Shown here in pieces: positions 9,619 to 57,665 of a stretch of DNA of 64,000 bases. The DNA comes from an uncultured Pseudomonadota bacterium. GTDB taxonomy: Bacteria; Myxococcota_A; Polyangia; Fen-1088. Position numbers and translations under genes: made by a program. The stretch lies in assembly GCA_963847705.1 (NCBI GenBank), contig CAWKBC010000017.1, positions 192,001-256,000 of the forward strand, read 5' to 3'. The notes below the pieces were generated by a model. That model had not been told where the DNA came from. It ran no database searches and saw nothing but the letters and a program-made list of their open reading frames with translations. Position 1 is the first letter of the stretch, and each line of letters opens with the position of its first letter.

Positions 9619-10386
9619 CTACTTCTTCTTGCCCTTGCCCTCGGCGTCGATGCGGGCGCCGCCGACCATCTCGGCCGGCTTGCCTTCCAGGTTGATCGTC
9701 TGCGCGTCGGGCGGGAGCACGGCGTTCCCCTCGACGACGACGTTGCCGGTGGCGTCCTGCAGCTTCTTGTGGATGATGAGGCCGTCGGAGGCGGCGAAGC
9801 CGCCCATCGAGTTGATCGAGAAGGTTCCGGTCACCACGTACTGCTCGCCGGCCTTGGCCACCAGCGCCTTCGGCTTGCCGGTCTTCCAGTCCTTGACCGG
9901 GTAGTCGGCGACCAGCAGGCCGTGATCGATCTTGGTGGTCGCGGTGTCACCGAGGAAGAAGTGCGGCTGGTCGCAGGGGCGGCAGCCGCCCTTCATCGCC
10001 GCCGGATCCGGCGCGGGCGGGCCCTTGCCCGGCAGGCCGCCCGACTTCATCTCTTTCTTCTTCTCCTTCTTCGTCTTCGCCGCCAGATCGTCGTTGCACT
10101 TCCGCTGCTCGGCGGGGCACTCGTAGATCGTCAGCAGGTACGCGCGCACCTGGACGTCCTTGTCCAGGTACTGGTTCATGTGCTTGCGCAATCCGTAGAT
10201 CGACATCTCGCCGCTGGGGTATTTTTCCGGCGCCGTCTGGATGTTGAAGTTCGGCGGCGGCGGCAGATCGACTTTGACGGGTGGCAGCTCCTGCCCCTGG
10301 CCGTAAGCTAGCCGAATGCCGCTGGGCGCGAGCAGCGCCAATGCCAAAGGAATGGTCCGGTGATATACGGTCGGCAGTCGCTTCAT
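9619..10386 (-). CDS. Hypothetical secreted protein with several Cys (CRPCDQPHFFLGD)
   Basis: GC-rich third codon positions; signal-peptide-like N-terminus from MKRL. Confidence 0.7.
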   Translation of the reverse strand: MKRLPTVYHRTIPLALALLAPSGIRLAYGQGQELPPVKVDLPPPPNFNIQTAPEKYPSGEMSIYGLRKHMNQYLDKDVQVRAYLLTIYECPAEQRKCNDDLAAKTKKEKKKEMKSGGLPGKGPPAPDPAAMKGGCRPCDQPHFFLGDTATTKIDHGLLVADYPVKDWKTGKPKALVAKAGEQYVVTGTFSINSMGGFAASDGLIIHKKLQDATGNVVVEGNAVLPPDAQTINLEGKPAEMVGGARIDAEGKGKKK

Positions 10387-10407
10387 GGACAAGCCCTCCA
10401 CCGCACG

Positions 10408-12111
10408 ATGCGGGTGAACCTGAATAACACAGTGATTTTCGACGAGCAAGCGTGGCCAACGCGGTTTGCGGTTGTGCTGGCGCTCGCCGTTTGGTCGCTC
10501 TCCTTGTCGGTCGCGGGCTGTCGATCGAAGAAGGAGAAGCCGGCCTCCGCCGCTGCTTCAGCCGGTCCCGATCTCCAGCTGATCCATCCGCCGCCGCCGC
10601 CCGCGGAGGATGTGCCCGCTCCGGCTGACGTCCCGGCGCCGGCCCGGCGGGGCGGGGTGCTGCGCGTCCACCTCGACGCCGAGCCGACCAGCCTGTTGCC
10701 GCTCGCCGAGTCGGACGCCGCCGCCGCGCAGGTGACCAACGGCCTCGTCTACGAGACGCTGCTCGACTGCCGCGATGGAACCTACAAGCCGGGCCTCGCC
10801 GAGAGCTGGGACGTCTCGAACGACGGTATGCGCCTGGCGGTGCGGGTGCGCAGCGGCGTTCACTGGCACGACCACCGCGCGTTCGGCGTGCTCGACGTGC
10901 AGGGGACGGTCGAGCCGCTCTTGCGGACGGGGACCGACGCGCCGGTGCTGCGCGCCGAGCTGGCCGACGTCGCGTCGATCGAGCTGGTGACCGAGCGGAC
11001 CGTCCGCTTCGTGCTCAAGCGGCCCTCGGACTTCGCGCTGCGGGCGCTCTGCGACGTGCCGATGCTCCCCGACCATCTGGTGCACGGCATCCGCCCGGAG
11101 GCCTCGCCGATCGCGCGCCAGCCGGTCGGCACGGGGCCGTTTCGTTTCGCCGGCTGGGATCACGGCAAGCGGATCCGGCTCGAGCGCGCGCCCGAGTACT
11201 GGGGCCCGCCGGCCGGCGTCGACGAGATCGTGTTCGACCTCGATCCCGACGCGGTCCGCTCGCTCAACCGCACCCGGCGCGGCGAGATCGACGTCCTGTC
11301 GCGCGTGATCGACGCCCACTATCCGGACCAGGTGGAGCCGACCACCTTGCACGGCGGCACGACGCTGCTCCGGCTGCGCTCCCGCCGGTATTCGTTCCTG
11401 GCGGTCAATCACCAGCACTACCCGCTCAGCGATCCCCGCTTTCGCAAGGCGCTGACGCTGCTCTGGGATCGAACGCGCTTCGCCGGCGAGCTGCACAACG
11501 ATCTGGCGCGCCCGATCGGCGGCCCGCCCCTGGTCGACGATCTTCCGGCGCCGCCGCTCGATCGCCCGCGCGCGGCCACCGCGCTGGACGACGCTGGCTA
11601 CCGCGACAGCGACGCCGACGGCGTGCGCGATCACCTCGGCCATCCGATTCGCCTGACGCTGCTCGAGCCGGCCGGCAACCGGCAGTTCCACGTCGAGGCG
11701 CACGCCTTCGCGCTGGAGGCGCGCAAGGTCGGCATCCTGGTCGACCTGGTGCCGGCGGATGCCGCCACCATCCAGCAGCGGCTGAAGCGGGGGGAGTTCG
11801 ATCTCGTGCCACTCATCTGGGAGGGGACGCCCGACGAGGATCCCGAGCCGCTCTATGGAACGGGCGGGGCGTTCAACTACGGCGGCTACCGCTCGAGCGC
11901 GCTCGAGGCGCTGATCGACGAGGCCAGGGGCGCCGCCGGACCGAGCGCGCGCGCGCCGATCCTGGCGCGCATCGCGCATCTCCTCGCCGACGAGCAGCCG
12001 GTGATCTTTCTGTATCGCTACGACATCCCGGCGCTGGCTTCGACGCGCGTGCACGGGCTGGCCGCAGTCGGAGACCGGTTCGATCTCCGGCGCGTCTGGC
12101 TCGACCCATAA
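10408..12111 (+). CDS. ABC transporter substrate-binding lipoprotein, family 5 (peptide/nickel)
   Basis: Lipobox VAGC; VYETLL, PGLAESWDVS, PVGTGPFRF motifs. Start uncertain; no cognate permease adjacent. Confidence 0.88.
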   Translation: MRVNLNNTVIFDEQAWPTRFAVVLALAVWSLSLSVAGCRSKKEKPASAAASAGPDLQLIHPPPPPAEDVPAPADVPAPARRGGVLRVHLDAEPTSLLPLAESDAAAAQVTNGLVYETLLDCRDGTYKPGLAESWDVSNDGMRLAVRVRSGVHWHDHRAFGVLDVQGTVEPLLRTGTDAPVLRAELADVASIELVTERTVRFVLKRPSDFALRALCDVPMLPDHLVHGIRPEASPIARQPVGTGPFRFAGWDHGKRIRLERAPEYWGPPAGVDEIVFDLDPDAVRSLNRTRRGEIDVLSRVIDAHYPDQVEPTTLHGGTTLLRLRSRRYSFLAVNHQHYPLSDPRFRKALTLLWDRTRFAGELHNDLARPIGGPPLVDDLPAPPLDRPRAATALDDAGYRDSDADGVRDHLGHPIRLTLLEPAGNRQFHVEAHAFALEARKVGILVDLVPADAATIQQRLKRGEFDLVPLIWEGTPDEDPEPLYGTGGAFNYGGYRSSALEALIDEARGAAGPSARAPILARIAHLLADEQPVIFLYRYDIPALASTRVHGLAAVGDRFDLRRVWLDP

Positions 12112-12114
12112 ACG

Positions 12115-13227
12115 ATGACCGGGACGCTCGGGATGACGAAGCTCGCGCTGGCGTTCGTCCTGGGGCTCGACCCGGGCCGGGCGCTCGGCGGCTGCCTCCC
12201 CCCGAAGCCGACGGCGGGCACTGGCGTCGCCGATCCCTTCAAGCCGCCCGACCCCCAGGCGACCGAGCTGAACGCCGCGGCGAAGGTTCTTTATCGCCAA
12301 GGCAAATGGGAAGAGGCGCGCACGGAGTACCGCGCGGCCGCGGCTGCCGATCCGACCTTCCTGGCGCCGCGCCTCAACGTCGCCTGCTCATACGTCCGCC
12401 AGGAGCGGTTCGGCGAGGCGGCGAGCGAGGTGCGCGCGCTCATCGAGCGGGCCTACGTCCCCTGGTCGCGGGAGGTGCTGGAAGCGGCGGATCTGGGGGC
12501 GCTCAAGGTGCAGCCTCAGATGGTGGAGCTCGAGCGCGCGCTGGCCGCTGCGGCGGTCGCGTGGGGCGCCGGCCTCGACGAGAGCGTCATCTTCGTCGGC
12601 CGCCTGCGGGCGCCGCTGCACGTCCCGCCGGACGGCGCGGGCGAATTCATCCTCAACCCGCACCAGGAGGTCTTCGCCTTCACGCCGTCGACGGGGCTCT
12701 ACCGGCAGCTCACGGCCGAGGACGGCCACGTCGTGGCGGTGGCGCTGGCGCCCGATCGGCGCCGGATCGTCTACGTCACGGCAGGGAAGCTGGTCCGCGG
12801 CGCCAGGCCGGACACCGTCGCGCTGGACGGCGTCGCCCTCGGCGAGCTGACGCTGGCGACCATGACCGCCGGCCCGCCGCTCCCCATCGCGGGCCCCGTC
12901 CGGCGGCTCGAGATCGCCGGGACGCCGCACGGGTTCGCCTACCGCATCGAAGGGGAGCGCACGAACGGTCTGTTCGTGGTCGGCGCCACCCGGACGCTGG
13001 TTCCCCTCGGCGGTGCCAAGCTCCCAGGTGTGCCGCTCGCGGTCTTGACGCCGGGGGGGCCGTTGCCGGTCGGTTCAGTGGCGGTCCCCGGCGGCTGTCC
13101 GGTCGTCGCGCGGGATCGAAAATCGGCGGAGGGGGGCCGCGCGATCCTCCTCACCGCCCATGGGCAACCGTCCCGGACCATCGGCGGCCTCTCCGGCGCG
13201 GGCCTGTCCGGACTTCCGCTCCCGTAA
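12115..13227 (+). CDS. Hypothetical TPR-containing exported protein
   Basis: TPR-like LYRQGKWEEARTEYRAA...RLNVAC; starts 3 nt after the previous gene. Confidence 0.65.
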   Translation: MTGTLGMTKLALAFVLGLDPGRALGGCLPPKPTAGTGVADPFKPPDPQATELNAAAKVLYRQGKWEEARTEYRAAAAADPTFLAPRLNVACSYVRQERFGEAASEVRALIERAYVPWSREVLEAADLGALKVQPQMVELERALAAAAVAWGAGLDESVIFVGRLRAPLHVPPDGAGEFILNPHQEVFAFTPSTGLYRQLTAEDGHVVAVALAPDRRRIVYVTAGKLVRGARPDTVALDGVALGELTLATMTAGPPLPIAGPVRRLEIAGTPHGFAYRIEGERTNGLFVVGATRTLVPLGGAKLPGVPLAVLTPGGPLPVGSVAVPGGCPVVARDRKSAEGGRAILLTAHGQPSRTIGGLSGAGLSGLPLP

Positions 13228-13293
13228 GCGGGTCGTAACTTACAAGGATGAGCAAAAAATTGCGGCTGTGCACAGGTAGGATAGTGTACGACC

Positions 13294-13494
13294 ATGTCGG
13301 CAAAACCACGTATCCTCTGGATTGTTCCGGCGGCCGTCCTGGCTTCGTGGCTGGCGGTTCGCTCCTTGGCGGCCTTCCCGGCCTACGGGCTGGAAGACCC
13401 GCCCATTTCGACCGCGATGCCCAAGATTCCCGATCCCGTGCTGGCGGAGATGATCTCCCGCTTCGCGGTCGAAGCCCGGCTCCACCACAACTAG
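13294..13494 (+). CDS. Small hypothetical protein (66 aa) with hydrophobic N-terminus
   Basis: Fills the gap between co-oriented genes; signal/TM-like segment. Confidence 0.5.
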   Translation: MSAKPRILWIVPAAVLASWLAVRSLAAFPAYGLEDPPISTAMPKIPDPVLAEMISRFAVEARLHHN

Positions 13495-13513
13495 TCGTCG
13501 CCGGAGCGCGGCG

Positions 13514-14455
13514 ATGAGTCTCTGTCTCGTCACGGGCGGGGCAGGGTTCATCGGGTCCTCGCTGGCCCGGGCGCTGATTGCGCGCGGCGATCGCGTGCGG
13601 GTGATCGACAACTTCTCGTCCGGCAAGCGCGAGAACCTCGCCGACCTCGCCGACCAGATCGAGCTCGTCGAGGGGGACATCCTGGACGACCAGGCGCTGG
13701 CGCGCGCCATCAACGGGGTCGAGCTGGTGTTTCACGAGGCGGCCATCCCCTCGGTGCCGAAGTCGATGGCCGAGCCGATCGAGAACCACGCCGCCAACGC
13801 CACCGGCACCTTGCGGGTGCTCGAGGCGGCGCGGCGGGCGGGGATTCGCCGGCTGGTCTACGCGGCCTCGTCAGCCGCCTACGGCGACGATCCGCAGCTC
13901 CCCAAGATCGAGACCATGCCGCCCGCGCCGATCTCGCCGTACGGTGGGTCGAAGCTGGCGGGCGAGCAGTACGCGCAGATCTACGCGCGCGCCTACGGCG
14001 TGGAGACGGTCTGTCTGCGCTACTTCAACGTGTTCGGGCCGCGGCAGGATCCGGCCTCCGAGTACGCGGCGGTGATCCCCAAGTTCATCACCTCGGCGCT
14101 GGCGGGGAAGCAGCCGCGCATCTTCGGCGACGGCTCGCAGTCGCGCGACTTCTGCTTCATCGACAACATCATCGAGGCCAACTTCAAGGCCGCCGCCGCC
14201 GAGGCGCGCGCGGTCTCGGGCGGTGTCTTCAACATCGCCTGCGGTCAGGCGACCGATCTCAACCGGGTGGTCGCGCTCATCGGCGACTTCCTGGGGCAAA
14301 AGGTGTCGGCGATCTACGAGGACGAGCGCGCGGGGGACATCAAGCACTCCTGGGCCGACATCGGCGCGGCCCGGGCGCGCCTCGGCTACACCGCGGGCGT
14401 CTCGTTCGCCGAGGGCCTCGGGCGCACCATCGACTGGTATAAGTCCAAGGGGTGA
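13514..14455 (+). CDS. NAD-dependent nucleotide-sugar epimerase/dehydratase (WbpP-like)
   Basis: TGGAGFIGS, YGGSK, LRYFNVFGPRQDP; GGAG RBS. Confidence 0.95.
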   Translation: MSLCLVTGGAGFIGSSLARALIARGDRVRVIDNFSSGKRENLADLADQIELVEGDILDDQALARAINGVELVFHEAAIPSVPKSMAEPIENHAANATGTLRVLEAARRAGIRRLVYAASSAAYGDDPQLPKIETMPPAPISPYGGSKLAGEQYAQIYARAYGVETVCLRYFNVFGPRQDPASEYAAVIPKFITSALAGKQPRIFGDGSQSRDFCFIDNIIEANFKAAAAEARAVSGGVFNIACGQATDLNRVVALIGDFLGQKVSAIYEDERAGDIKHSWADIGAARARLGYTAGVSFAEGLGRTIDWYKSKG

Positions 14456-32661: not shown

Positions 32662-33399
32662 TCAGCCGGGCTTGCGCGGAATGCGCGCCCGCAGCGCCCA
32701 GACCAGGGTCACCGCCTCGAGGACGATGTTGCCAGACATCTTCGACTGGCCGACCCGGCGTTCGACGAACTTGATGGGAACCTCGACGACGCGGAATCCG
32801 CCGCAGATCGCGCGGTAGGTCATCTCGATCTGGAAACCGTAGCCGTGGGCCGAGACGGCCTCGAGATCGAGGGCCCGCAGCGTGTCGGCGCGCCAGGCCT
32901 TGAAGCCCGCGGTCAGGTCGTTGATTCCGACGCCCAGGACCAGCCGCGCGTACATCCCGCCGCCGCGGCTGATGATCTTTCGCCCGAGTCCCCAGTTCTC
33001 GGTCCCGCCGCCCGCGGTGTAGCGCGACCCGATCGCCACGTCGGCGCCTTCATCCAGAGCTCGCAAGAGCCGCGGGATATCCTGGGGATCGTGGGAGAAA
33101 TCGGCGTCCATCTGGACGATGCGCTGCCAGCCGCGCGCCGATCCGAGCGCATGCTTGTAGGCCGCCAGATAGGCCGCCCCCAGCCCCTCCTTGGCGCTCC
33201 TGTGCATCACCTCGACCTGGCCATCACCAGCTTGGGCGGCGAGCTGGTCGGCCAGCGCCCCGGTCCCGTCGGGCGAGTTGTCGTCGACGATGAGGACCGT
33301 CGCCGCCGGCACCGCCGCCCGAACCGCCGGGATGATGTCCGCCAGGACCTCCCGCTCGTTGTAGGTCGGGATGACGATCAACGTCGAGGCGTCGCTCAT
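32662..33399 (-). CDS. Polyprenol monophosphomannose synthase (GT2)
   Basis: IPTYNE, VDDNSPDGTG, QMDADFSH, DLTAGFK, GYGFQIEM. Confidence 0.92.
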   Translation of the reverse strand: MSDASTLIVIPTYNEREVLADIIPAVRAAVPAATVLIVDDNSPDGTGALADQLAAQAGDGQVEVMHRSAKEGLGAAYLAAYKHALGSARGWQRIVQMDADFSHDPQDIPRLLRALDEGADVAIGSRYTAGGGTENWGLGRKIISRGGGMYARLVLGVGINDLTAGFKAWRADTLRALDLEAVSAHGYGFQIEMTYRAICGGFRVVEVPIKFVERRVGQSKMSGNIVLEAVTLVWALRARIPRKPG

Positions 33400-33412
33400 C
33401 TGGGACGCGTGA

Positions 33413-34419
<1,007 letters not shown>

Positions 34420-34423
<4 letters not shown>

Positions 34424-35373
34424 CTGCTCTCGATCTCCTTTTGGTTGGTTTCGTAGTACTCGACGGTGGCGCGGAGGCCGACGTCGAAAGGGGTCTTCGC
34501 CACGAAGCCGAAGCGCTCGCGGGCGCGGGTGACGTCCAGCTGGCGCCGGGGCTGTCCGTTCGGCTTGCTGGTGTCCCAGACGAAACGCCCCTGGTAGCGG
34601 GCGGCCTGGGCGATCTTGCTCGCCAGGTCACGGATGGTGAGCTCCACGCCGTTGCCGAGGTTCACCGGATCGCTCGAGTCGTAGCGCTCGGCGGCCAGCA
34701 GGATCCCTTCAGCGGCGTCGTCGACGTAGAGGAACTCCCGCGTCGCCGAGCCGTCGCCCCACAAGGTGACCTCCGGCTCGCCGCGGGTGCGCGCGCCGAC
34801 GAACTTCCGGATCATCGCCGGGATGACGTGCGAGGACTCGAGGTCGAAGTTGTCCCGCGGTCCGTAGAGATTGACCGGGAAGAGGACCACGCTGTTCATG
34901 CCGTACTGCTGCCGGTAGCCCTCCGATTGCACCAGCATCATTTTCTTGGCCACCCCATACGGGGCGTTGGTCTCCTCCGGGTAGCCGTTCCAGAGATCGT
35001 CTTCCTTGAACGGCACCGGCGCGAACTTGGGGTAAGCGCAGATGGTGCCGAGCGCGACCAGCTTGGGGACCTTGGCCAGCCGGCACTCCTCGAAGAGCTG
35101 CAGCCCCATCATCGCGTTCTCGAACAGGAAGCGTCCCGGGTTCGAGCGGTTGGCGCCGATCCCCCCGACCTGGGCGGCCAGGTGGATCACCAGGTCGGGC
35201 CGCGCGTCGGCCAGGAGCCGCCGGGCGGCCGCGCGGTCGACGAGATCGTAGTCGGCCGACCGGGGAACGGTCACCGAGGCGCCGGCATCGCGCAGCCGAC
35301 CGACGACGAAGCTGCCGAGAAACCCGGCCCCACCGGTGACGACGACCCGACGGCCGTTCCAGAAGCTGCTCAT
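34420..35373 (-). CDS. fcl: GDP-L-fucose synthase
   Basis: [39 protein letters not shown]; adjacent to gmd. Confidence 0.93.
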
Positions 35374-37323: not shown

Positions 37324-37347
37324 AAGCGGCCCGCCCTCCAAGTCCAG

Positions 37348-37421
<74 letters not shown>

Positions 37422-37728: not shown

Positions 37729-38316
37729 ATGTCTAGGGGAGACAAACGGTGGATCGTCGCCGGCTCGGTCGTTGTGCTGACGGGACTGGGCTGGTTTGCG
37801 CTGCGGGATCGCGGGACCAGCGGGTCCGAGCGAGCAGACGGCGACGAGCTACACGGATTTGGATCGCGACCGTTCGCGGCGGCCGACGCCAGGCTCCCCC
37901 CACCGCCCGAGACGCCCGAGCTGCTCGCCAAACAGGTCGAGGGGGCGATGGGGCGCTGGCGAACGGCGATCCTGGTGAAGGATGCCCCTTCGGTCGTCGC
38001 GCTCGACCTGACGTTCCGCCAGATGCCGGACCGTTACAGGGCCGCGCTGGCCGCGATCGCCGAGAGCGATGAGAACGAGCGCGTGCGGGCCTTCTCCACC
38101 CGCGTGCTCGGGAAGCTCAAGAACGCGGCGGAGGCGCCGCTCTACCGTCGCCTGCTCACCGACAGGAGCCCCTTCGTCCGCCAGAATGCAGTTTGGGCGC
38201 TGGGGGAGCTCGGCTCTGCCGCGGGCCCGGCCGTCGCCGAGCTGCAGAAGGCCAGCGCCCACGATCCGGCGAACGACGTCCGCGCCGCCGCCCGGGCCGC
38301 CCTCGCCAAGCGCTAG
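37729..38316 (+). CDS. Membrane-anchored HEAT-repeat protein
   Basis: N-terminal TM; ERVRAFSTRVLG, FVRQNAVWALG, DVRAAARAAL. Confidence 0.8.
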   Translation: MSRGDKRWIVAGSVVVLTGLGWFALRDRGTSGSERADGDELHGFGSRPFAAADARLPPPPETPELLAKQVEGAMGRWRTAILVKDAPSVVALDLTFRQMPDRYRAALAAIAESDENERVRAFSTRVLGKLKNAAEAPLYRRLLTDRSPFVRQNAVWALGELGSAAGPAVAELQKASAHDPANDVRAAARAALAKR

Positions 38317-38337: not shown

Positions 38338-38496
38338 GTGGCAAACAAAGCGAAACGAAAACCGACAGGACCGGCCAAGAAGGCCTGGCAGAAGCCGCGC
38401 ATCAAGAGTGGCCGCCTGTTCGAGTCGAACAGCCTGGCCTGCGGCAAGAACGGTCCCGGAATGGAATCGTGCGAGCAGTTCCCGAAGATGTCATGA
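38338..38496 (+). CDS. Putative RiPP precursor peptide (52 aa), absent from the ORF track
   Basis: MANKAKRKPTGPAKKAWQKPRIKSGRLFESNSLACGKNGPGMESCEQFPKMS*; WxKPxI leader motif; stop overlaps next ATG. Confidence 0.8.
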   Translation: MANKAKRKPTGPAKKAWQKPRIKSGRLFESNSLACGKNGPGMESCEQFPKMS

Positions 38497-39848
38497 CCAG
38501 ACCGGTCGCGGGCGGTTCCGAGAAGCTGACGCTTTCGCTTTCGCTTTCGCTTTCGATAGGGGGCATCGTCGGCTGCCTGGAGATCTCGGGGGCCCAGGCG
38601 GTCTTTCTCGAGCAGGTTCGGGCGCGCTACGGGGCGTTCATCCTGCCATCCGGCAGCCGCAGCGCCAGCGACTTCAGCCTGCGGCTGGCGCTGGAGCCGA
38701 GCGCCGCGCCCGGCGGCTCGGCTTCGAAGCGCCTGGCCGAGACCGAAGCGCACCCGTTGAAGGTCACGGTCAAGGGGTACGCCATCGCCGCCGAGCGGTG
38801 GGACTTTCGGGCGCGCCTCCAGGGACGTTCGACGCCGCGGTCGGTGCCGGGGCGCGGGATCAGTTATCGCGGCGAAGGTCGCTGTGAGGCCAGCCCGTTC
38901 GCGCTCGACTGCCTGCTGAGGGTGATCTACGCGACCCTGCTGCCGCGCGTGGGGGGGATGCTCATCCACGGCTGCGGCCTGCGGCACGCGGCGATCGGGG
39001 TGATCTTCCCGGGTGTGAGCGGCGCGGGGAAGAGCACTCTCGCGCGCAAGGCGCCGGACGCGGACGACGTGCTGTCAGACGAGCTGGTGGTGGTTCGCCG
39101 GCTGGACGATGGCTGGCGCGTGTACGGGACGCCGTTCTGGGGCGACTTCGCCCGCGGCGGCATCTCGATGCGCAGCTGGCCGCTGCGAACGGTGGCGTTC
39201 CTCAACCAGGCGCGCGAGGTGGCGATGACGCCGATCACCTCCTCGGATGCGACGCTGCGCCTGCTCGGCTGCTTCCTGGCCTTCACCACCGATCGCGCGT
39301 CGGTCGAGCGGAGCCTGGCCGTGGCCGTCCAGCTCTGCGCCGAGGTTCGCTCGGTCGAGGCGTCGCTGACCCGCGCGGCGCCCACGGCGATCGTGTTCCG
39401 CAAGCTCGCCCCGCACCTCGGGCCCGAGGTGACGCGCGCGGTGCCGCCTGCGAACGCGCGCGAGCTCATCTCCGAGTTCCGCGCGCTGCTGCGCAAGCAG
39501 CGGTCGTACTCCTTCAGGCCCAAAGGGACGGCGGGCGCCTGGCTCAAGAACGGCGAATCGCTCGCGGTCCAGACGCCCGGTCTCGGCGCGCCGCTCGGGC
39601 CGGGGGACGTCGTGCTGTCCTGGGTGCCCGGACCGACGCCCGACGAGGATGCCCTGGCCTGCCGCCGACTCTCGGCGGCGGGCGCGCGCGAGGCCGGGCA
39701 GGCCTGGATCGGGGGCGAGCTACTCGGCCGCGTCACCCTCGTCTCGCGCGACGGCAAGACCCTGCCGCTTCCGGGACGTGTCGCCGATCTGGCCCGCAGC
39801 TTCGGGCCGCTGGTCGCGATTCCCATGCTGAGGATGGCCGGACGATGA
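38493..39848 (+). CDS. HPr-kinase-like P-loop protein fused to a degenerate S24/S26 peptidase-like domain
   Basis: LIHGCG, GVSGAGKST, LSDE, GTPFWG; C-terminal LGPGDVVL...ELLGRV. Confidence 0.8.
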   Translation: MTRPVAGGSEKLTLSLSLSLSIGGIVGCLEISGAQAVFLEQVRARYGAFILPSGSRSASDFSLRLALEPSAAPGGSASKRLAETEAHPLKVTVKGYAIAAERWDFRARLQGRSTPRSVPGRGISYRGEGRCEASPFALDCLLRVIYATLLPRVGGMLIHGCGLRHAAIGVIFPGVSGAGKSTLARKAPDADDVLSDELVVVRRLDDGWRVYGTPFWGDFARGGISMRSWPLRTVAFLNQAREVAMTPITSSDATLRLLGCFLAFTTDRASVERSLAVAVQLCAEVRSVEASLTRAAPTAIVFRKLAPHLGPEVTRAVPPANARELISEFRALLRKQRSYSFRPKGTAGAWLKNGESLAVQTPGLGAPLGPGDVVLSWVPGPTPDEDALACRRLSAAGAREAGQAWIGGELLGRVTLVSRDGKTLPLPGRVADLARSFGPLVAIPMLRMAGR

Positions 39849-40117
39849 CCTACAAGCGCGATCCCGGCCTCCCGTTCCAGAAGCTGGAGGAGGAGACCAT
39901 CGTGGTCGACCCGCGCACCCGCGAGGTCCACCTGCTGAACGACACCGCGGCGCGCGTCTGGGAGCTCCTGGCGTCGTCCTCGACGCTCGACGAGCTGACG
40001 GAGACGCTGGCCGAGGAGTACGACGCGCCTGCGGAGGCGGTGCGCGCGGGCGTCGAGGAGCTGCTGGCCGGGTTGCGCGACAAGGGCCTCCTGGTCGACG
40101 TGGCTGAGGCGGCCTGA
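39845..40117 (+). CDS. PqqD family RiPP recognition element (RRE) protein
   Basis: 90 aa; HLLNDTAARVWELL, LAEEYD, L.DKGLL. Confidence 0.92.
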   Translation: MTYKRDPGLPFQKLEEETIVVDPRTREVHLLNDTAARVWELLASSSTLDELTETLAEEYDAPAEAVRAGVEELLAGLRDKGLLVDVAEAA

Positions 40118-40119
40118 GC

Positions 40120-41406
40120 GTGGACTCCGCGCCGCGCTGCCAGGACGAGGCGATCCTGACCCCGTCGGGCGAGCACGCGGTGGTGAGCCAGCTGCAGAGC
40201 ATGGCCTACCAGCGGATGATCCCGCTCAACGTCTCGCTCGAGCTGACGCTCAAGTGCAACATCCGGTGCCTCCACTGCTACAACTTCGACCGCGACACCG
40301 CCGGCCCTGCCTGCGGCCCGCGCGACGCGGCGTCGCCGGCCGGGGCGCTGTCTCCGGAGCTGTCTCCGGAGCTGTCTCCGGAGCTGTCCTTGGAGGAGAT
40401 CTTCCGGGTGATGGGCGAGCTGCGCGCCGCGGGGACGCTGTTCCTCTCGCTCACCGGTGGCGAGGTCCTGAGCTCGCCGCATCTCTTCCCGGTGCTCGAC
40501 CGCGCGCGCGAGCTCAACCTGGCGGTCCAGATGCTGAGCAACGGGACGCTGCTCCGCCCCGGCGTGGCGGCGCGCCTGGCGGGCTATCGCAACCTCCTCG
40601 GCGTCAGCATCAGCGTCTACGGCGCGACGCCGGAGGTGCACGACGCCATCACGCAGATCCGCGGCTCCTGGCGGCGGACGCTCGACGGCGCCGAGCGGCT
40701 GCGCGCCCAGGGGGTGGCCGTGCGCCTCAAGCTGATCGTGATGCGCCCGAACGTGCATGAGGTGGGCGCGATGCGGGCGCTCTGCGACGCCCGCGGGTTC
40801 CCCTACCTGCTCGATCTCACGGTCACGGCGCGCCACGACGGCACCAAAGGGAGCCTGGCCATGCGGATCACCGAGGCCGAGCTGGCCGCGCTCTACCAGG
40901 GCCCGCTCCACGATCTCATTCCCAACGGCCGTCGCGCCGTCGACGAGGAGGCGTTCCCCTGCAACTGCGCGCGCGGAAACGCCGCCATCTCGGCGCGCGG
41001 CGACGTGTTTCCTTGCGTGTCGGTCCCCTGGAGGGCCGGCAACGTGCGCCAGCGGCCGTTCGGGGAGATCTGGCGGAGCTCGCCGGTGTTCGAACGAATC
41101 CGCGGGCTGAAGATCGCCGACTACCCGGCCTGTGCCCCCTGCCCCGACAAGTCCTTCTGCTCGCGGGATCGCGGCGCCGCCTACAACGCCTCGGGGAGCT
41201 ACACCGGGATCGACCCATTCGTCTGCGCCGCCGCCGGCGTCGCGCGGGCCGTCGCGGAGACGCGCCCCGGCGAGGCCGCGCGCCCCGGCGAGGCCGCGCG
41301 CCCCGGCGTGGCCGCGCGCCCCGGCGAGGCCGCGCGCCCCGGCGTGGACAACCGACCGCCGGCCGCGCCCGACGTCCGGCTGCCGCTGGCGGTCGCCGCC
41401 CGCTGA
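40120..41406 (+). CDS. Radical SAM / SPASM domain peptide maturase
   Basis: CNIRCLHC (CxxxCxxC), LTGGE, SNG; SPASM C..G...I...GDVFPC and CAPC-x5-C. Confidence 0.93.
   Translation: MDSAPRCQDEAILTPSGEHAVVSQLQSMAYQRMIPLNVSLELTLKCNIRCLHCYNFDRDTAGPACGPRDAASPAGALSPELSPELSPELSLEEIFRVMGELRAAGTLFLSLTGGEVLSSPHLFPVLDRARELNLAVQMLSNGTLLRPGVAARLAGYRNLLGVSISVYGATPEVHDAITQIRGSWRRTLDGAERLRAQGVAVRLKLIVMRPNVHEVGAMRALCDARGFPYLLDLTVTARHDGTKGSLAMRITEAELAALYQGPLHDLIPNGRRAVDEEAFPCNCARGNAAISARGDVFPCVSVPWRAGNVRQRPFGEIWRSSPVFERIRGLKIADYPACAPCPDKSFCSRDRGAAYNASGSYTGIDPFVCAAAGVARAVAETRPGEAARPGEAARPGVAARPGEAARPGVDNRPPAAPDVRLPLAVAAR
41263..41346 (+). repeat. In-frame 18-bp tandem repeat (~4.7 copies)
   Basis: CGCCCCGGCG(A/T)GGCCGCG encoding RPG(E/V)AA. 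Confidence 0.9.
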
Positions 41407-41448: not shown

Positions 41449-41961
41449 GTGACCGCCATGCCGCCGCTCGTCCCCGTCGTGGAGGTCAAACAGACGATGG
41501 CGGGGGGCGAGAAGCGCTTCGACTGCCTGCGCCTCGCCGGCGGCGCCGGGCACGCCGTTCTGCTCTGGATCACGCCGGCGCCGATGCGCGTTCATGGCGT
41601 CGAGCTGCCGGCGGGGACCATCAGCTTCGGGCACTTCTGGACCAATCGGTTCTACAACGTCTACCACTGGCTCGACGCCGACCGCCGGACGCTGGGGTTC
41701 TATTTCAACCTGGCCGACCGAACGCAAATCGGCGAGGCCGAGCTCGTGTGGCGCGATCTGGTGGTGGATGTGCTGGCGACCCCGGCCGGCCGGCTGGAGG
41801 TCCTCGACGAGGATGAGCTGCCCGTCCTCGTCGACCCGGAGGTGGCGGCCCACATCGCCGCCGGCAAAGCGGCGATTCTGGGCGCGCCGACTCTGCTGAT
41901 GGCGGAGATCGAGACCGCCTCCCGGGCGCTGTTCCCGCTGGCCTTTCCAGCGTCCGGTTAA
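41449..41961 (+). CDS. DUF402 family protein
   Basis: YNVYHW, FYFNLA, WRDLVVDV, VLDEDEL. Confidence 0.8.
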   Translation: MTAMPPLVPVVEVKQTMAGGEKRFDCLRLAGGAGHAVLLWITPAPMRVHGVELPAGTISFGHFWTNRFYNVYHWLDADRRTLGFYFNLADRTQIGEAELVWRDLVVDVLATPAGRLEVLDEDELPVLVDPEVAAHIAAGKAAILGAPTLLMAEIETASRALFPLAFPASG

Positions 41962-42905
41962 GGGAGCTCGACCACCACGGGCTCGCGCGCGATCGCCGAC
42001 AGTGAGAATCCGCCGACGAGCGCGGCGGCCGGCAGCGACCGGCCGGGAGGACGAAGACCTGCCGAGGCGGCCAGCGCTCCCACCACGGTCTCGGGCGCCA
42101 CCCCCCGATCGCGCAGCGAGGCGAGCGTCGCCGGGCGCGTCCGCTTCGCCAGCCGCTCGCCGCCGGGCGTGACCACCAGCGGAACGTGTGCGAAGGCCGG
42201 CGGGGTCAGCTCGAGCGCGCGGTAAAGCGCGATCTGCCGCGGGGTCGAGCGCAGCAGATCGTCGCCGCGCACGACGCGCGTCACCTGCATCGCCGCGTCG
42301 TCGACGACCACGGCCAGCTGGTACGCGGCGGTGCCGTCGGCGCGGCGCAGGACGAAGTCGTCGACGCCACCCGCCTCGCTGGTCACCGCGCCATGAACCT
42401 CGTCGACGAAGTCGATCCGTTGCCCGCGGCCCACGAACCGCACGGCCGGCGCTCTCCCCTGGGCCTCCGCGCGCGCCGTCACGGCGGCGGGGTCGGTGTC
42501 GCGGCAGGTCCCGGGGTAGCGCGGCTCTGCCGCGGCGTCGTCATGCGGCGCGCTGGCGGCGCGGGCCACGTCGGCGCGCGAGCAGGCGCAGAGGAACGCC
42601 CGTTGCGAGACCAGCAGCCGCTCGATCGCCGCGTCGTAGTCTCGGGTGCGCTCGCTCTGTCGGTAGGGCGCGAACGGACCGCCGCGATCGGGCCCCTCGT
42701 CCCAGTCGAGCCCCAACCAGGCGAGATCCTCGAGCTGTCGCCGCTCGGCGTCGGGCTGCAGGCGTGCCCGATCGAGATCTTCGATCCGCATCAGGAAAGC
42801 GCCCCCCGCGCTGCGGGCGTCGAGCCAGGCGAAGAGCGCGGTCCGCGCGTTGCCGAGGTGAAGCTGGCCGGTGGGGCTGGGGGCGAAGCGGCCGCGGACC
42901 GGCAT
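41958..42905 (-). CDS. gluQ: Glutamyl-Q tRNA(Asp) synthetase
   Basis: RFAPSPTGQLHLGN, RIEDLD, CACSR, YQLAVVVDD, RLAKR; no anticodon-binding domain. Confidence 0.93.
   Translation of the reverse strand: MPVRGRFAPSPTGQLHLGNARTALFAWLDARSAGGAFLMRIEDLDRARLQPDAERRQLEDLAWLGLDWDEGPDRGGPFAPYRQSERTRDYDAAIERLLVSQRAFLCACSRADVARAASAPHDDAAAEPRYPGTCRDTDPAAVTARAEAQGRAPAVRFVGRGQRIDFVDEVHGAVTSEAGGVDDFVLRRADGTAAYQLAVVVDDAAMQVTRVVRGDDLLRSTPRQIALYRALELTPPAFAHVPLVVTPGGERLAKRTRPATLASLRDRGVAPETVVGALAASAGLRPPGRSLPAAALVGGFSLSAIAREPVVVELP

Positions 42906-45677: not shown

Positions 45678-45753
<76 letters not shown>

Positions 45754-57590: not shown

Positions 57591-57665
<75 letters not shown>

Follow-up and report, generated by a model that had tools for sequence, protein, structure and literature searches.

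Linear polyphosphorylated peptides (LPPs) are peptides synthesized on the ribosome and modified after translation (RiPPs), made by the products of LppA/K/B/S/D/N, which include a RiPP recognition element (RRE), an HprK kinase and the signal-peptidase-like protease LppS (Popov et al. 2026, PMC13381572). According to that report, LppS depends on S29, H68 and D93, acts only together with its RRE and cuts after F-E-T, and its first helix docks on the RRE in an AlphaFold model that is backed by mutants (PMC13381572). Among the kinases of related pathways, PadeK, ThcoK, SyanK and PsmK are described as phosphorylating the C-terminal Ser of their precursors (PMC9266682, PMC6993621), whereas LppK (PMC13381572) and BsfK (PMC10368454) modify Ser3 of the core instead; the activity of BsfK is boosted by its RRE (PMC10368454). 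Here we describe a cassette of four genes in a 64,000-nucleotide stretch of DNA (the window; positions 192,001 to 256,000 of contig CAWKBC010000017.1, assembly GCA_963847705.1) from an uncultured bacterium of the lineage Myxococcota_A, Polyangia, Fen-1088. The cassette is a genuine RiPP operon and a variation on the LPP and kinase-tailored types, with an added radical S-adenosylmethionine (rSAM)/SPASM enzyme and a core peptide with two Cys residues. It joins the LPP machinery, reported in 2026, to a SPASM enzyme, in a family found across Acidobacteriota, Elusimicrobiota, Myxococcota and other little-cultured phyla. The main features of the locus are as follows.

38338-38496, plus strand: precursor gene, GTG start, 52 amino acids
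38338-38427, plus strand: precursor leader, residues 1-30, with W17xxP20 as predicted RRE-binding motif and F28-E29-S30 as predicted peptidase site
38428-38496, plus strand: predicted core N31-S52, 22 residues, with Cys35, Lys37, Cys45 and C-terminal Ser52
38493-39848, plus strand: kinase gene, 451 amino acids counted from ATG
38532-39422, plus strand: kinase domain with HprK/PEP carboxykinase fold, residues ~14-310, with H159, G174, G177, G179, K180, S181, D196 and E197
39456-39848, plus strand: fused signal-peptidase-like (S24/S26, LppS-like) domain, kinase residues 322-451
39845-40117, plus strand: stand-alone RRE gene, PqqD family
40120-41406, plus strand: rSAM/SPASM gene, GTG start
40960-41226, plus strand: SPASM cysteine region of the rSAM protein, with C281, C283, C299, C338, C341, C347 and C369

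An initial annotation of this DNA had placed four genes here in the order precursor, kinase, RRE and rSAM, and all four open reading frames lie where it put them. They are tightly coupled, by ATGA overlaps at 38493-38496 and 39845-39848 and by a gap of 2 nucleotides before the GTG of the rSAM gene. The assignment of the last two genes also holds, with PqqD, Radical_SAM and SPASM passing their Pfam cut-offs; the RRE scores 68 bits against a PqqD cut-off of 23.4. The conserved short reading frame that the annotation expected at homologous loci is kept in 30 of 30. In these loci (the best 30, window included), a HEAT-repeat gene and the precursor, kinase, RRE and rSAM/SPASM genes stand in identical order.

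The nearest studied relatives of this cassette are the LPP and kinase-tailored lasso pathways. With the LPP pathway it shares a stand-alone RRE, an HprK-like kinase, a signal-peptidase-like protease with a Ser/His/Asp triad, the lack of a cyclase and a leader of the type [Y/W]xxP...FE[T/S], while some loci of the family also have an NTP transferase and an ABC transporter. The differences are considerable. An rSAM/SPASM enzyme is at the core of the present family, whereas the main text of the LPP paper does not mention radical SAM enzymes and in its supplements Radical_SAM appears solely among the 834 neighbour columns (PMC13381572); loci with an rSAM gene may still be among the smaller clusters in its peptidase network. 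The family core combines two Cys with a terminal Ser and has no Ser3; the leader of the window precursor has WxxP and FES, with a spacing of 11 instead of 13, two residues shorter than in LPP. Furthermore, kinase and peptidase are fused and the fused peptidase of the host genome is dead, while the LPP peptidase is active; the window locus has no transporter or NTP transferase, and the family hosts are not Bacillota. Kinase-tailored lasso pathways (paeninodin PadeK, ThcoK, SyanK, pseudomycoidin PsmK/PsmN, BsfK) resemble the cassette in the His-Lys-acid-acid kinase motif, the conserved C-terminal Ser, the [Y/W]xxP leader and the stand-alone RRE. They differ in that the window cassette has an rSAM enzyme and an Asp-Glu instead of an Asp-Asp pair in the kinase, and that its nine scanned genes gave no hit to a lasso cyclase or a B2 protease. 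In line with the initial annotation, neither a lasso cyclase nor a transporter was found adjacent when these nine genes were compared with Pfam and NCBIfam. In the full-text literature no description of a RiPP with both an HprK kinase and an rSAM enzyme was found, most subscription papers being outside the scope of that search.

The short precursor gene is not a chance reading frame, since it has 38 homologues at 67-96% identity (those at 83-85% from Polyangia) and since, across codons 17-52 of 18 loci, synonymous changes (171 codons) outnumber non-synonymous ones (55). W17, P20, F28, E29, S32, C35, K37 and C45 are invariant in 22 Polyangia-type precursors, and 37 of the 38 close homologues end in Ser. 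A profile search gave 96 representatives, of which 93 were kept after leaving out three long ones; 85 of these end in Ser and four in Thr, with a profile that itself included the terminal Ser. The GTDB genomes were also scanned with a DNA pattern for the central precursor motif only, which is blind to the C-terminus. This gave at least 119 GTDB stretches and two viral ones, together 121, of which 109 were kept as precursors (Y/WxxP and at least two Cys) and 12 were dropped as chance matches; neither of the two motif matches in viral contigs is a precursor. Among the matches listed, to which all counts out of 109 refer, 108 of the 109 precursors have Ser as their last residue; of 832 neighbouring reading frames, 73 do. 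The 109 have 101 distinct cores, but many are from Acidobacteriota and relatives are not independent. Hosts among the matches listed are Acidobacteriota, Elusimicrobiota, Armatimonadota, Firestonebacteria, Methylomirabilota, Planctomycetota, Fibrobacterota, Myxococcota and a few proteobacteria, so that the family spans at least eight phyla. It is widespread rather than local and appears to be unstudied. NCBIfam and Pfam have no precursor model for it, no NCBIfam model matches any of 57 aligned precursors, and the window precursor matches neither database.

Within this family, the distance from the leader Y/W to F is 11 in all 109, Thr or Ser stands at position -1 of the predicted cut in 92, and the last Cys lies seven residues from the C-terminus in 99. 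In 87 of 91 representatives the residue after Cys-x is Lys; 37 of the 109 cores have no Phe, Trp or Tyr. The third position of the core is Leu in the family and the second is Ala in 98 of 109; a Ser occurs anywhere at +1 to +4 in only 23. We consider it likely, by analogy with LppS, that the family is cleaved after FE[T/S], which in the window precursor is F28-E29-S30 and would give the predicted core N31-S52, with a calculated monoisotopic mass of 2313.99 when unmodified. Signal peptidases follow an AxA rule, and cleavage by this rule after S-L-A, which would give an N-terminal Cys, was considered as well; most of 91 precursor representatives have small residues at -3 and -1 of this site. It was ranked below FE[T/S], given the LppS data.

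All 55 family kinases compared have H159, S176, G177, G179, K180, T182, D196 and E197 without exception. The catalytic motif of BsfK is described as H148-G163-G166-G168-K169-S170-D186-D187 (PMC10368454), and the motif of the window kinase has the same spacing, with the acid pair within one residue. A structural model of the window kinase (mean pLDDT 71) matches phosphoenolpyruvate (PEP) carboxykinases, at a best E of 9e-5 and a TM score of about 0.3. HPr kinase shares the PEP carboxykinase fold. A search of PDB sequences with the kinase profile found designed P-loop proteins only, and matches to NCBIfam are weak, ScmC giving 43 of the required 125 bits. Taking the terminal Ser and the PadeK-type kinases together, the kinase probably phosphorylates Ser52, the last residue of the precursor. 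The Ser3 site of LppK and BsfK is not general in the family, since its third core position is Leu and Ser is so rare at +1 to +4.

The RRE matches TbiB1, TfuB1, PqqD and the entry 9x8z, an LppB complex (E 0.004), weakly, and would hold the 52-residue precursor by its WxxP leader. The rSAM protein has the cluster cysteines C46, C50 and C53 and seven SPASM Cys, with Asp350 in place of the fourth Cys of the family. Its model (pLDDT 91) has SkfB, SuiB, BlsE, PqqE, CteB and anSME as fold neighbours, at 13-22% identity, by which the chemistry is not assigned. Comparison of 56 of 61 family rows showed that C283 (17 of 56) and C350 (39 of 56) are mutually exclusive, and the clade of the window has moved a likely AuxI ligand from position 350 to 283. 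Only seven SPASM Cys are present in 20 of the 56, the window enzyme included. For the thioether-forming CrpC, an open iron in AuxI has been predicted (PMC13692751); with three AuxI ligands, an iron would likewise be left for a substrate Cys here. With other thioether SPASM enzymes (CteB, CrpC, QhpD, SkfB; sacti- and ranthipeptides) the window enzyme shares the SPASM fold, seven auxiliary Cys and a substrate that contains Cys, and it differs from them in the separate, not fused, RRE, in an identity of 16-22% and in the moved AuxI ligand; the maturase models StsB (83 of 625 bits) and AlbA (60 of 850) stay far below cut-off. Because two Cys are invariant and 37 of the 109 cores have no aromatic residue, we regard a Cys thioether as the most likely product of the rSAM enzyme, at about an even chance, with a loss of 2 Da for each link through Cys35 and/or Cys45. 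An aromatic C-C crosslink was considered and is disfavoured by the same 37 cores.

The initial annotation saw no clearly active protease at the locus. None is active, but a dead peptidase domain, fused to the kinase, had been overlooked. Over kinase residues 322-451 the window protein can be aligned with fused homologues in which the SMxP, HR and KGD motifs persist; the window domain itself has lost the catalytic Ser, the His and the KGD segment. The intact fused homologues match a profile of 37 stand-alone peptidases of the family (five at E 1e-18 to 1e-22, six at 1e-6 to 1e-11), whereas the window domain gives no signal with it (E 0.87). Its assignment as a peptidase is therefore based on alignment with the intact homologues (51-64% overall identity). 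Pfam S24 matches only intact fused homologues, below cut-off, and direct BLASTP of the kinase against a stand-alone peptidase from the same genome (on contig C32) found nothing. The triad is intact in 11 of 36 fused kinase-peptidase proteins, and the Ser is lost in 25, the window protein among them. In a tree of the kinase domain only, these 25 dead forms fall into two clades, one of 19 rows that include the window (support 100/99) and one of six rows (100/100); the clade of 19 is joined by three rows whose triad is intact (99/95). The simplest reading is apparently that the triad was lost twice.

Conservation in the 25 dead forms is 0.92 for the helix at 323-336, 0.91 for the kinase core and 0.58 around the lost Ser. 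Since the helix that matches the docking helix of LppS stays conserved, the dead domain may have kept a docking role, and we suggest tentatively, as something that is rather less than an even chance, that it is a tether which holds the kinase on the RRE-leader complex. A complex prediction for the RRE, precursor residues 12-52 and kinase residues 314-451 scored 0.01, against a mark of 0.32, and counts neither for nor against such docking. In the ancestral form, the signal-peptidase-like enzyme would have cut after F28-E29-S30 to free the 22-residue core. In the host genome, the leader could either be cut in trans by one of two stand-alone peptidases of the family type with intact-looking motifs, on contigs C32 and C30, or be left on. 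With its fusion and repeated triad loss, the family provides a natural experiment on the reduction of a RiPP leader peptidase to an adaptor that docks on an RRE.

For co-occurrence, 76 family loci were fetched with their flanks, of which 50 have at least 5 kb on each side (full-flank loci). Kinase, rSAM, RRE and a signal-peptidase-like gene are present together in 38 of these 50, and in seven of the 50 none of them is found. Of the full-flank loci, 42 have the rSAM gene, and 40 of these have the kinase as well. An NTP_transf_5 gene occurs in 14 of 50 and an ABC-2 permease in nine. Where tested genomes have a precursor locus without a kinase, a kinase lies elsewhere in the genome in five of five; a full-length family rSAM lies elsewhere in four of five tested genomes whose precursor locus has none.

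The initial annotation grouped the kinase with the SynChlorMet/HPr-rel type, and this part does not stand, as all Scm and HPr-rel kinase and rSAM models remain below cut-off. SynChlorMet, HPr-rel-A/B, GeoRSP and ACGX systems do resemble the cassette in having a PqqD-like protein, an HprK-related protein and an rSAM/SPASM enzyme. The scores, however, are far too low for SynChlorMet (ScmC 43/125, ScmD 22/100, ScmE 84/400 and ScmF 55/400 bits), which moreover has two rSAM enzymes where the window has one. For HPr-rel-A the kinase reaches 19 of 200 bits (TIGR04352) and only the RRE passes, with 39 of 35 bits for the loose model TIGR04353. Membership of the four kinds was rejected, the rSAM scoring 68/400 for GeoRSP and 49/400 for ACGX, and 0 of 57 precursors matching any model. 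With mycofactocin MftC the rSAM enzyme has a match across the SPASM domain, and an invariant C-terminal precursor residue is common to both systems, but the score is 94 bits against a cut-off of 265, the residue is Ser instead of Tyr, and no other mft-like genes are adjacent.

The complete pathway, in which the RRE grips the leader, the kinase phosphorylates Ser52, the rSAM enzyme forms a Cys thioether and the dead peptidase serves as a tether, has in our judgement slightly less than an even chance of being right. As a prediction, the product proposed by the initial annotation, a crosslinked peptide that may also be phosphorylated, is still the reading we prefer, and phosphorylation is the better supported half. 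Several observations weigh against the pathway. Five distant precursors beside kinase-like genes lack the terminal Ser (L039, L042, L044, L046, L049), and Ser32 is invariant in the Polyangia clade of 22 sequences. An eighth SPASM Cys, at position 288, is present in 36 of the 56 family rSAMs, where it could fill AuxI, and is Ala in the window enzyme. The top profile matches of the rSAM are AhbD, NirJ2 and MftC, which are non-thioether enzymes, all far below cut-off. A transporter and a nucleotidyltransferase are absent from the window locus, and the co-occurrence profiles were built from the same loci, in which relatives are not independent. The invariant Ser32 leads to one alternative, namely that the kinase modifies the Ser just after the leader, as in the LPP and bsf lasso pathways, with another role for the terminal Ser. 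LppK and BsfK do act on core Ser3, and fusion to a domain for the leader site would place the kinase near the Ser32 region; yet Leu at +3, Ala at +2 and the scarcity of Ser at +1 to +4 are family-wide, although the kinases are one family with one motif, and we regard this alternative as improbable. Ser52 remains the preferred target, with Ser32 as a clade-specific rival.

For the rSAM step, it is unlikely, but slightly less so than the Ser32 alternative, that the kinase primes Ser52 for an MftC-like reaction at the C-terminus, either an oxidative decarboxylation or the loss of phosphate by a radical route, with Cys45 then closing an eight-residue ring onto residue 52. The fixed distance of the last Cys from the end (99 of 109), the presence of MftC among the best matches that reach across the SPASM domain (residues 87-349), the decarboxylase BlsE among sequence and fold matches, and the kinase found in 40 of the 42 loci with an rSAM gene all fit such a route. 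We know of no precedent for it. MftC decarboxylates the C-terminus of its peptide (PMC10114670), but scores of about 95-115 bits against cut-offs of 265-500 are level with many unrelated SPASM families, and PsmN, a homologue of the NTP_transf_5 genes in 14 of 50 loci, decorates a phosphate that is retained (PMC6993621). Equally unlikely, in our view, is a disulfide or metal site formed by the two Cys, with the rSAM enzyme making another change, for example a C-C or C-N link at Lys37 or an epimerisation. Among the top fold neighbours is SuiB, an enzyme whose target is Lys, the order Cys-x-Lys recurs in 87 of the 91 representatives, and the eighth SPASM Cys of 36 of the 56 enzymes would be in keeping with such chemistry; on the other hand, 37 of 109 cores offer no aromatic partner, 20 of 56 rSAMs, among them the window enzyme, have seven Cys only, and fold neighbours at 13-22% identity are uninformative on chemistry. 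It is very improbable that the rSAM protein works as a cofactor enzyme of the PqqE, NirJ or Ahb kind beside an incidental short reading frame, or that the cassette is decaying in this lineage. The top NCBIfam matches are haem enzymes and the peptidase domain is dead, but the enzyme reaches only 72 of 381 bits for PqqE, 94 of 515 for NirJ, 116 of 500 for AhbD and 94 of 265 for MftC, so that by these scores it falls outside the cofactor enzymes that the initial annotation had named. Judged by E-value (best 8e-48), none of the 56 family members reaches a curated rSAM cut-off or comes near those of the cofactor enzymes. A PqqD/PqqE-like pair, judged from sequence, lies on another contig (C27:45984-47674), the precursor codons show the synonymous excess given above, and the kinase core remains conserved at 0.91 in the dead-peptidase clades. 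Four genes in 3 kb and a predicted core of 22 residues put the chemistry within reach of a single experiment in Escherichia coli.

The function of the product may be indicated by the neighbours of the cassette. A large gene of extracellular type is present in 35 of the 50 full-flank loci, in the form of a family of 600-750 amino acids, FN3/Ig giants, PQQ-type propellers or, in distant members of the host phylum, FG-GAP giants; the bsf lasso cluster also borders an FG-GAP repeat gene (PMC10368454). The family of 600-750 amino acids (e.g. L128:4852-6777, L100:7154-9361, L125:596-2794 and 31 more reading frames) occurs in 32 of 76 precursor loci and has, by eye, signal-peptide-like N-termini and propeller-like repeats. 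Three tested members had no Pfam match, and an Atlas search with the commonest large neighbour gave hypothetical proteins only, with one row in which 21% of members carry PD40 at 0.83 as a lead. Several orphan precursors keep their large neighbour after loss of the enzymes (L113, L128, L135). These genes hint at a role of the product outside the cell, and their steady link to the family bears on the purpose of phosphorylated LPP and lasso-type peptides. A more far-reaching proposal, to which we give a low probability, is that the terminal Ser is worked on first by the kinase and then by the rSAM enzyme: the phosphate would prime a radical decarboxylation or elimination, and Cys45 would close a ring at the C-terminus with neither a lanthipeptide lyase nor a flavin decarboxylase involved. 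The dead peptidase would then be an adaptor between kinase and RRE, and the large extracellular neighbours, or here the membrane-anchored HEAT protein, would have the product as their ligand or small subunit. The small subunit of quinohemoprotein amine dehydrogenase is likewise matured by an rSAM enzyme.

Directly around the cassette, the HEAT gene upstream, the DUF402 gene downstream and the tRNA-Arg of the initial annotation were all recovered by Pfam and a tRNA scan.

37347-37421, minus strand: tRNA-Arg(CCT)
37729-38316, plus strand: HEAT-repeat protein, likely start ATG 37729, Pfam HEAT_2 above cut-off
41449-41961, plus strand: DUF402 protein (Pfam DUF402), probably co-transcribed, a variable neighbour and not part of the core

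The HEAT gene is found only in Polyangia-type loci (6 of 76), whose form of the operon it opens, and is retained in the rearranged cassettes L066 and L091; its homologues have, by eye, a hydrophobic N-terminal stretch, a predicted membrane anchor. Four of the 76 loci, each of Polyangia type, have a called DUF402 gene. We rejected the idea that the cassette is an island newly inserted at the tRNA-Arg, as the GC content of the cassette equals that of its flanks and the cassette is present across the family; the kinase is matched in 54 of 89 genomes of the host's order, weak paralogue matches counted. A promoter scan of the locus gave 0 sites, and terminator-like sites numbered two on the minus strand against 1.9 expected.

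The host genome holds related systems. On contig C32 (L031:6632-12766, minus strand) a second cassette combines a C25/PorU-like protease of 886 amino acids, an RRE, an rSAM/SPASM enzyme, a stand-alone kinase and an intact-looking peptidase; its precursor has 60 amino acids and YxxP and ends in Ser, and a large repeat-rich protein is encoded on the opposite strand. Discrimination between W and Y leaders has been shown for LPP and paeninodin (PMC13381572), with which the occurrence of WxxP and YxxP cassettes in one genome fits. Contig C41 (L032:6333-7704, 9846-14000) carries an RRE-kinase fusion, a lasso B2-like gene, a methyltransferase and, by eye, long FG-GAP-like repeat proteins, with no cyclase or precursor identified there. 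An orphan peptidase of the family type lies at C30:338969-339559, and another orphan, C23:26862-28052, lies amid sugar-nucleotide-like genes and matches the nucleotidyltransferase profile of the family.

Among more distant loci, L071:4266-19001 contains several rSAMs, kinase-like genes, an RRE, an S26 peptidase, a subtilase and a C32-type precursor that ends in Thr, and in L052:7445-8584 an arginine-methyltransferase-like gene (PRMT_C) directly follows the kinase. Some relatives have broken frames in their kinase, RRE or rSAM genes, and one read-through joins HEAT and precursor (L006, L022, G072:C2, G069:C26, P0076); these are probably assembly errors. The rSAM gene of the window has two short tandem repeats, a four-residue unit repeated three times in an insertion loop (40351-40386) and a six-residue unit repeated four times in a low-complexity tail (~41265-41345), neither conserved in homologues. 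Other neighbours in the window are ordinary: a glycosyltransferase, two sugar-nucleotide enzymes that we take to be gmd and fcl, a GluQ synthetase, tRNA-Pro and tRNA-Val (within 32662-35373, 41958-42905, 45678-45753 and 57591-57665).

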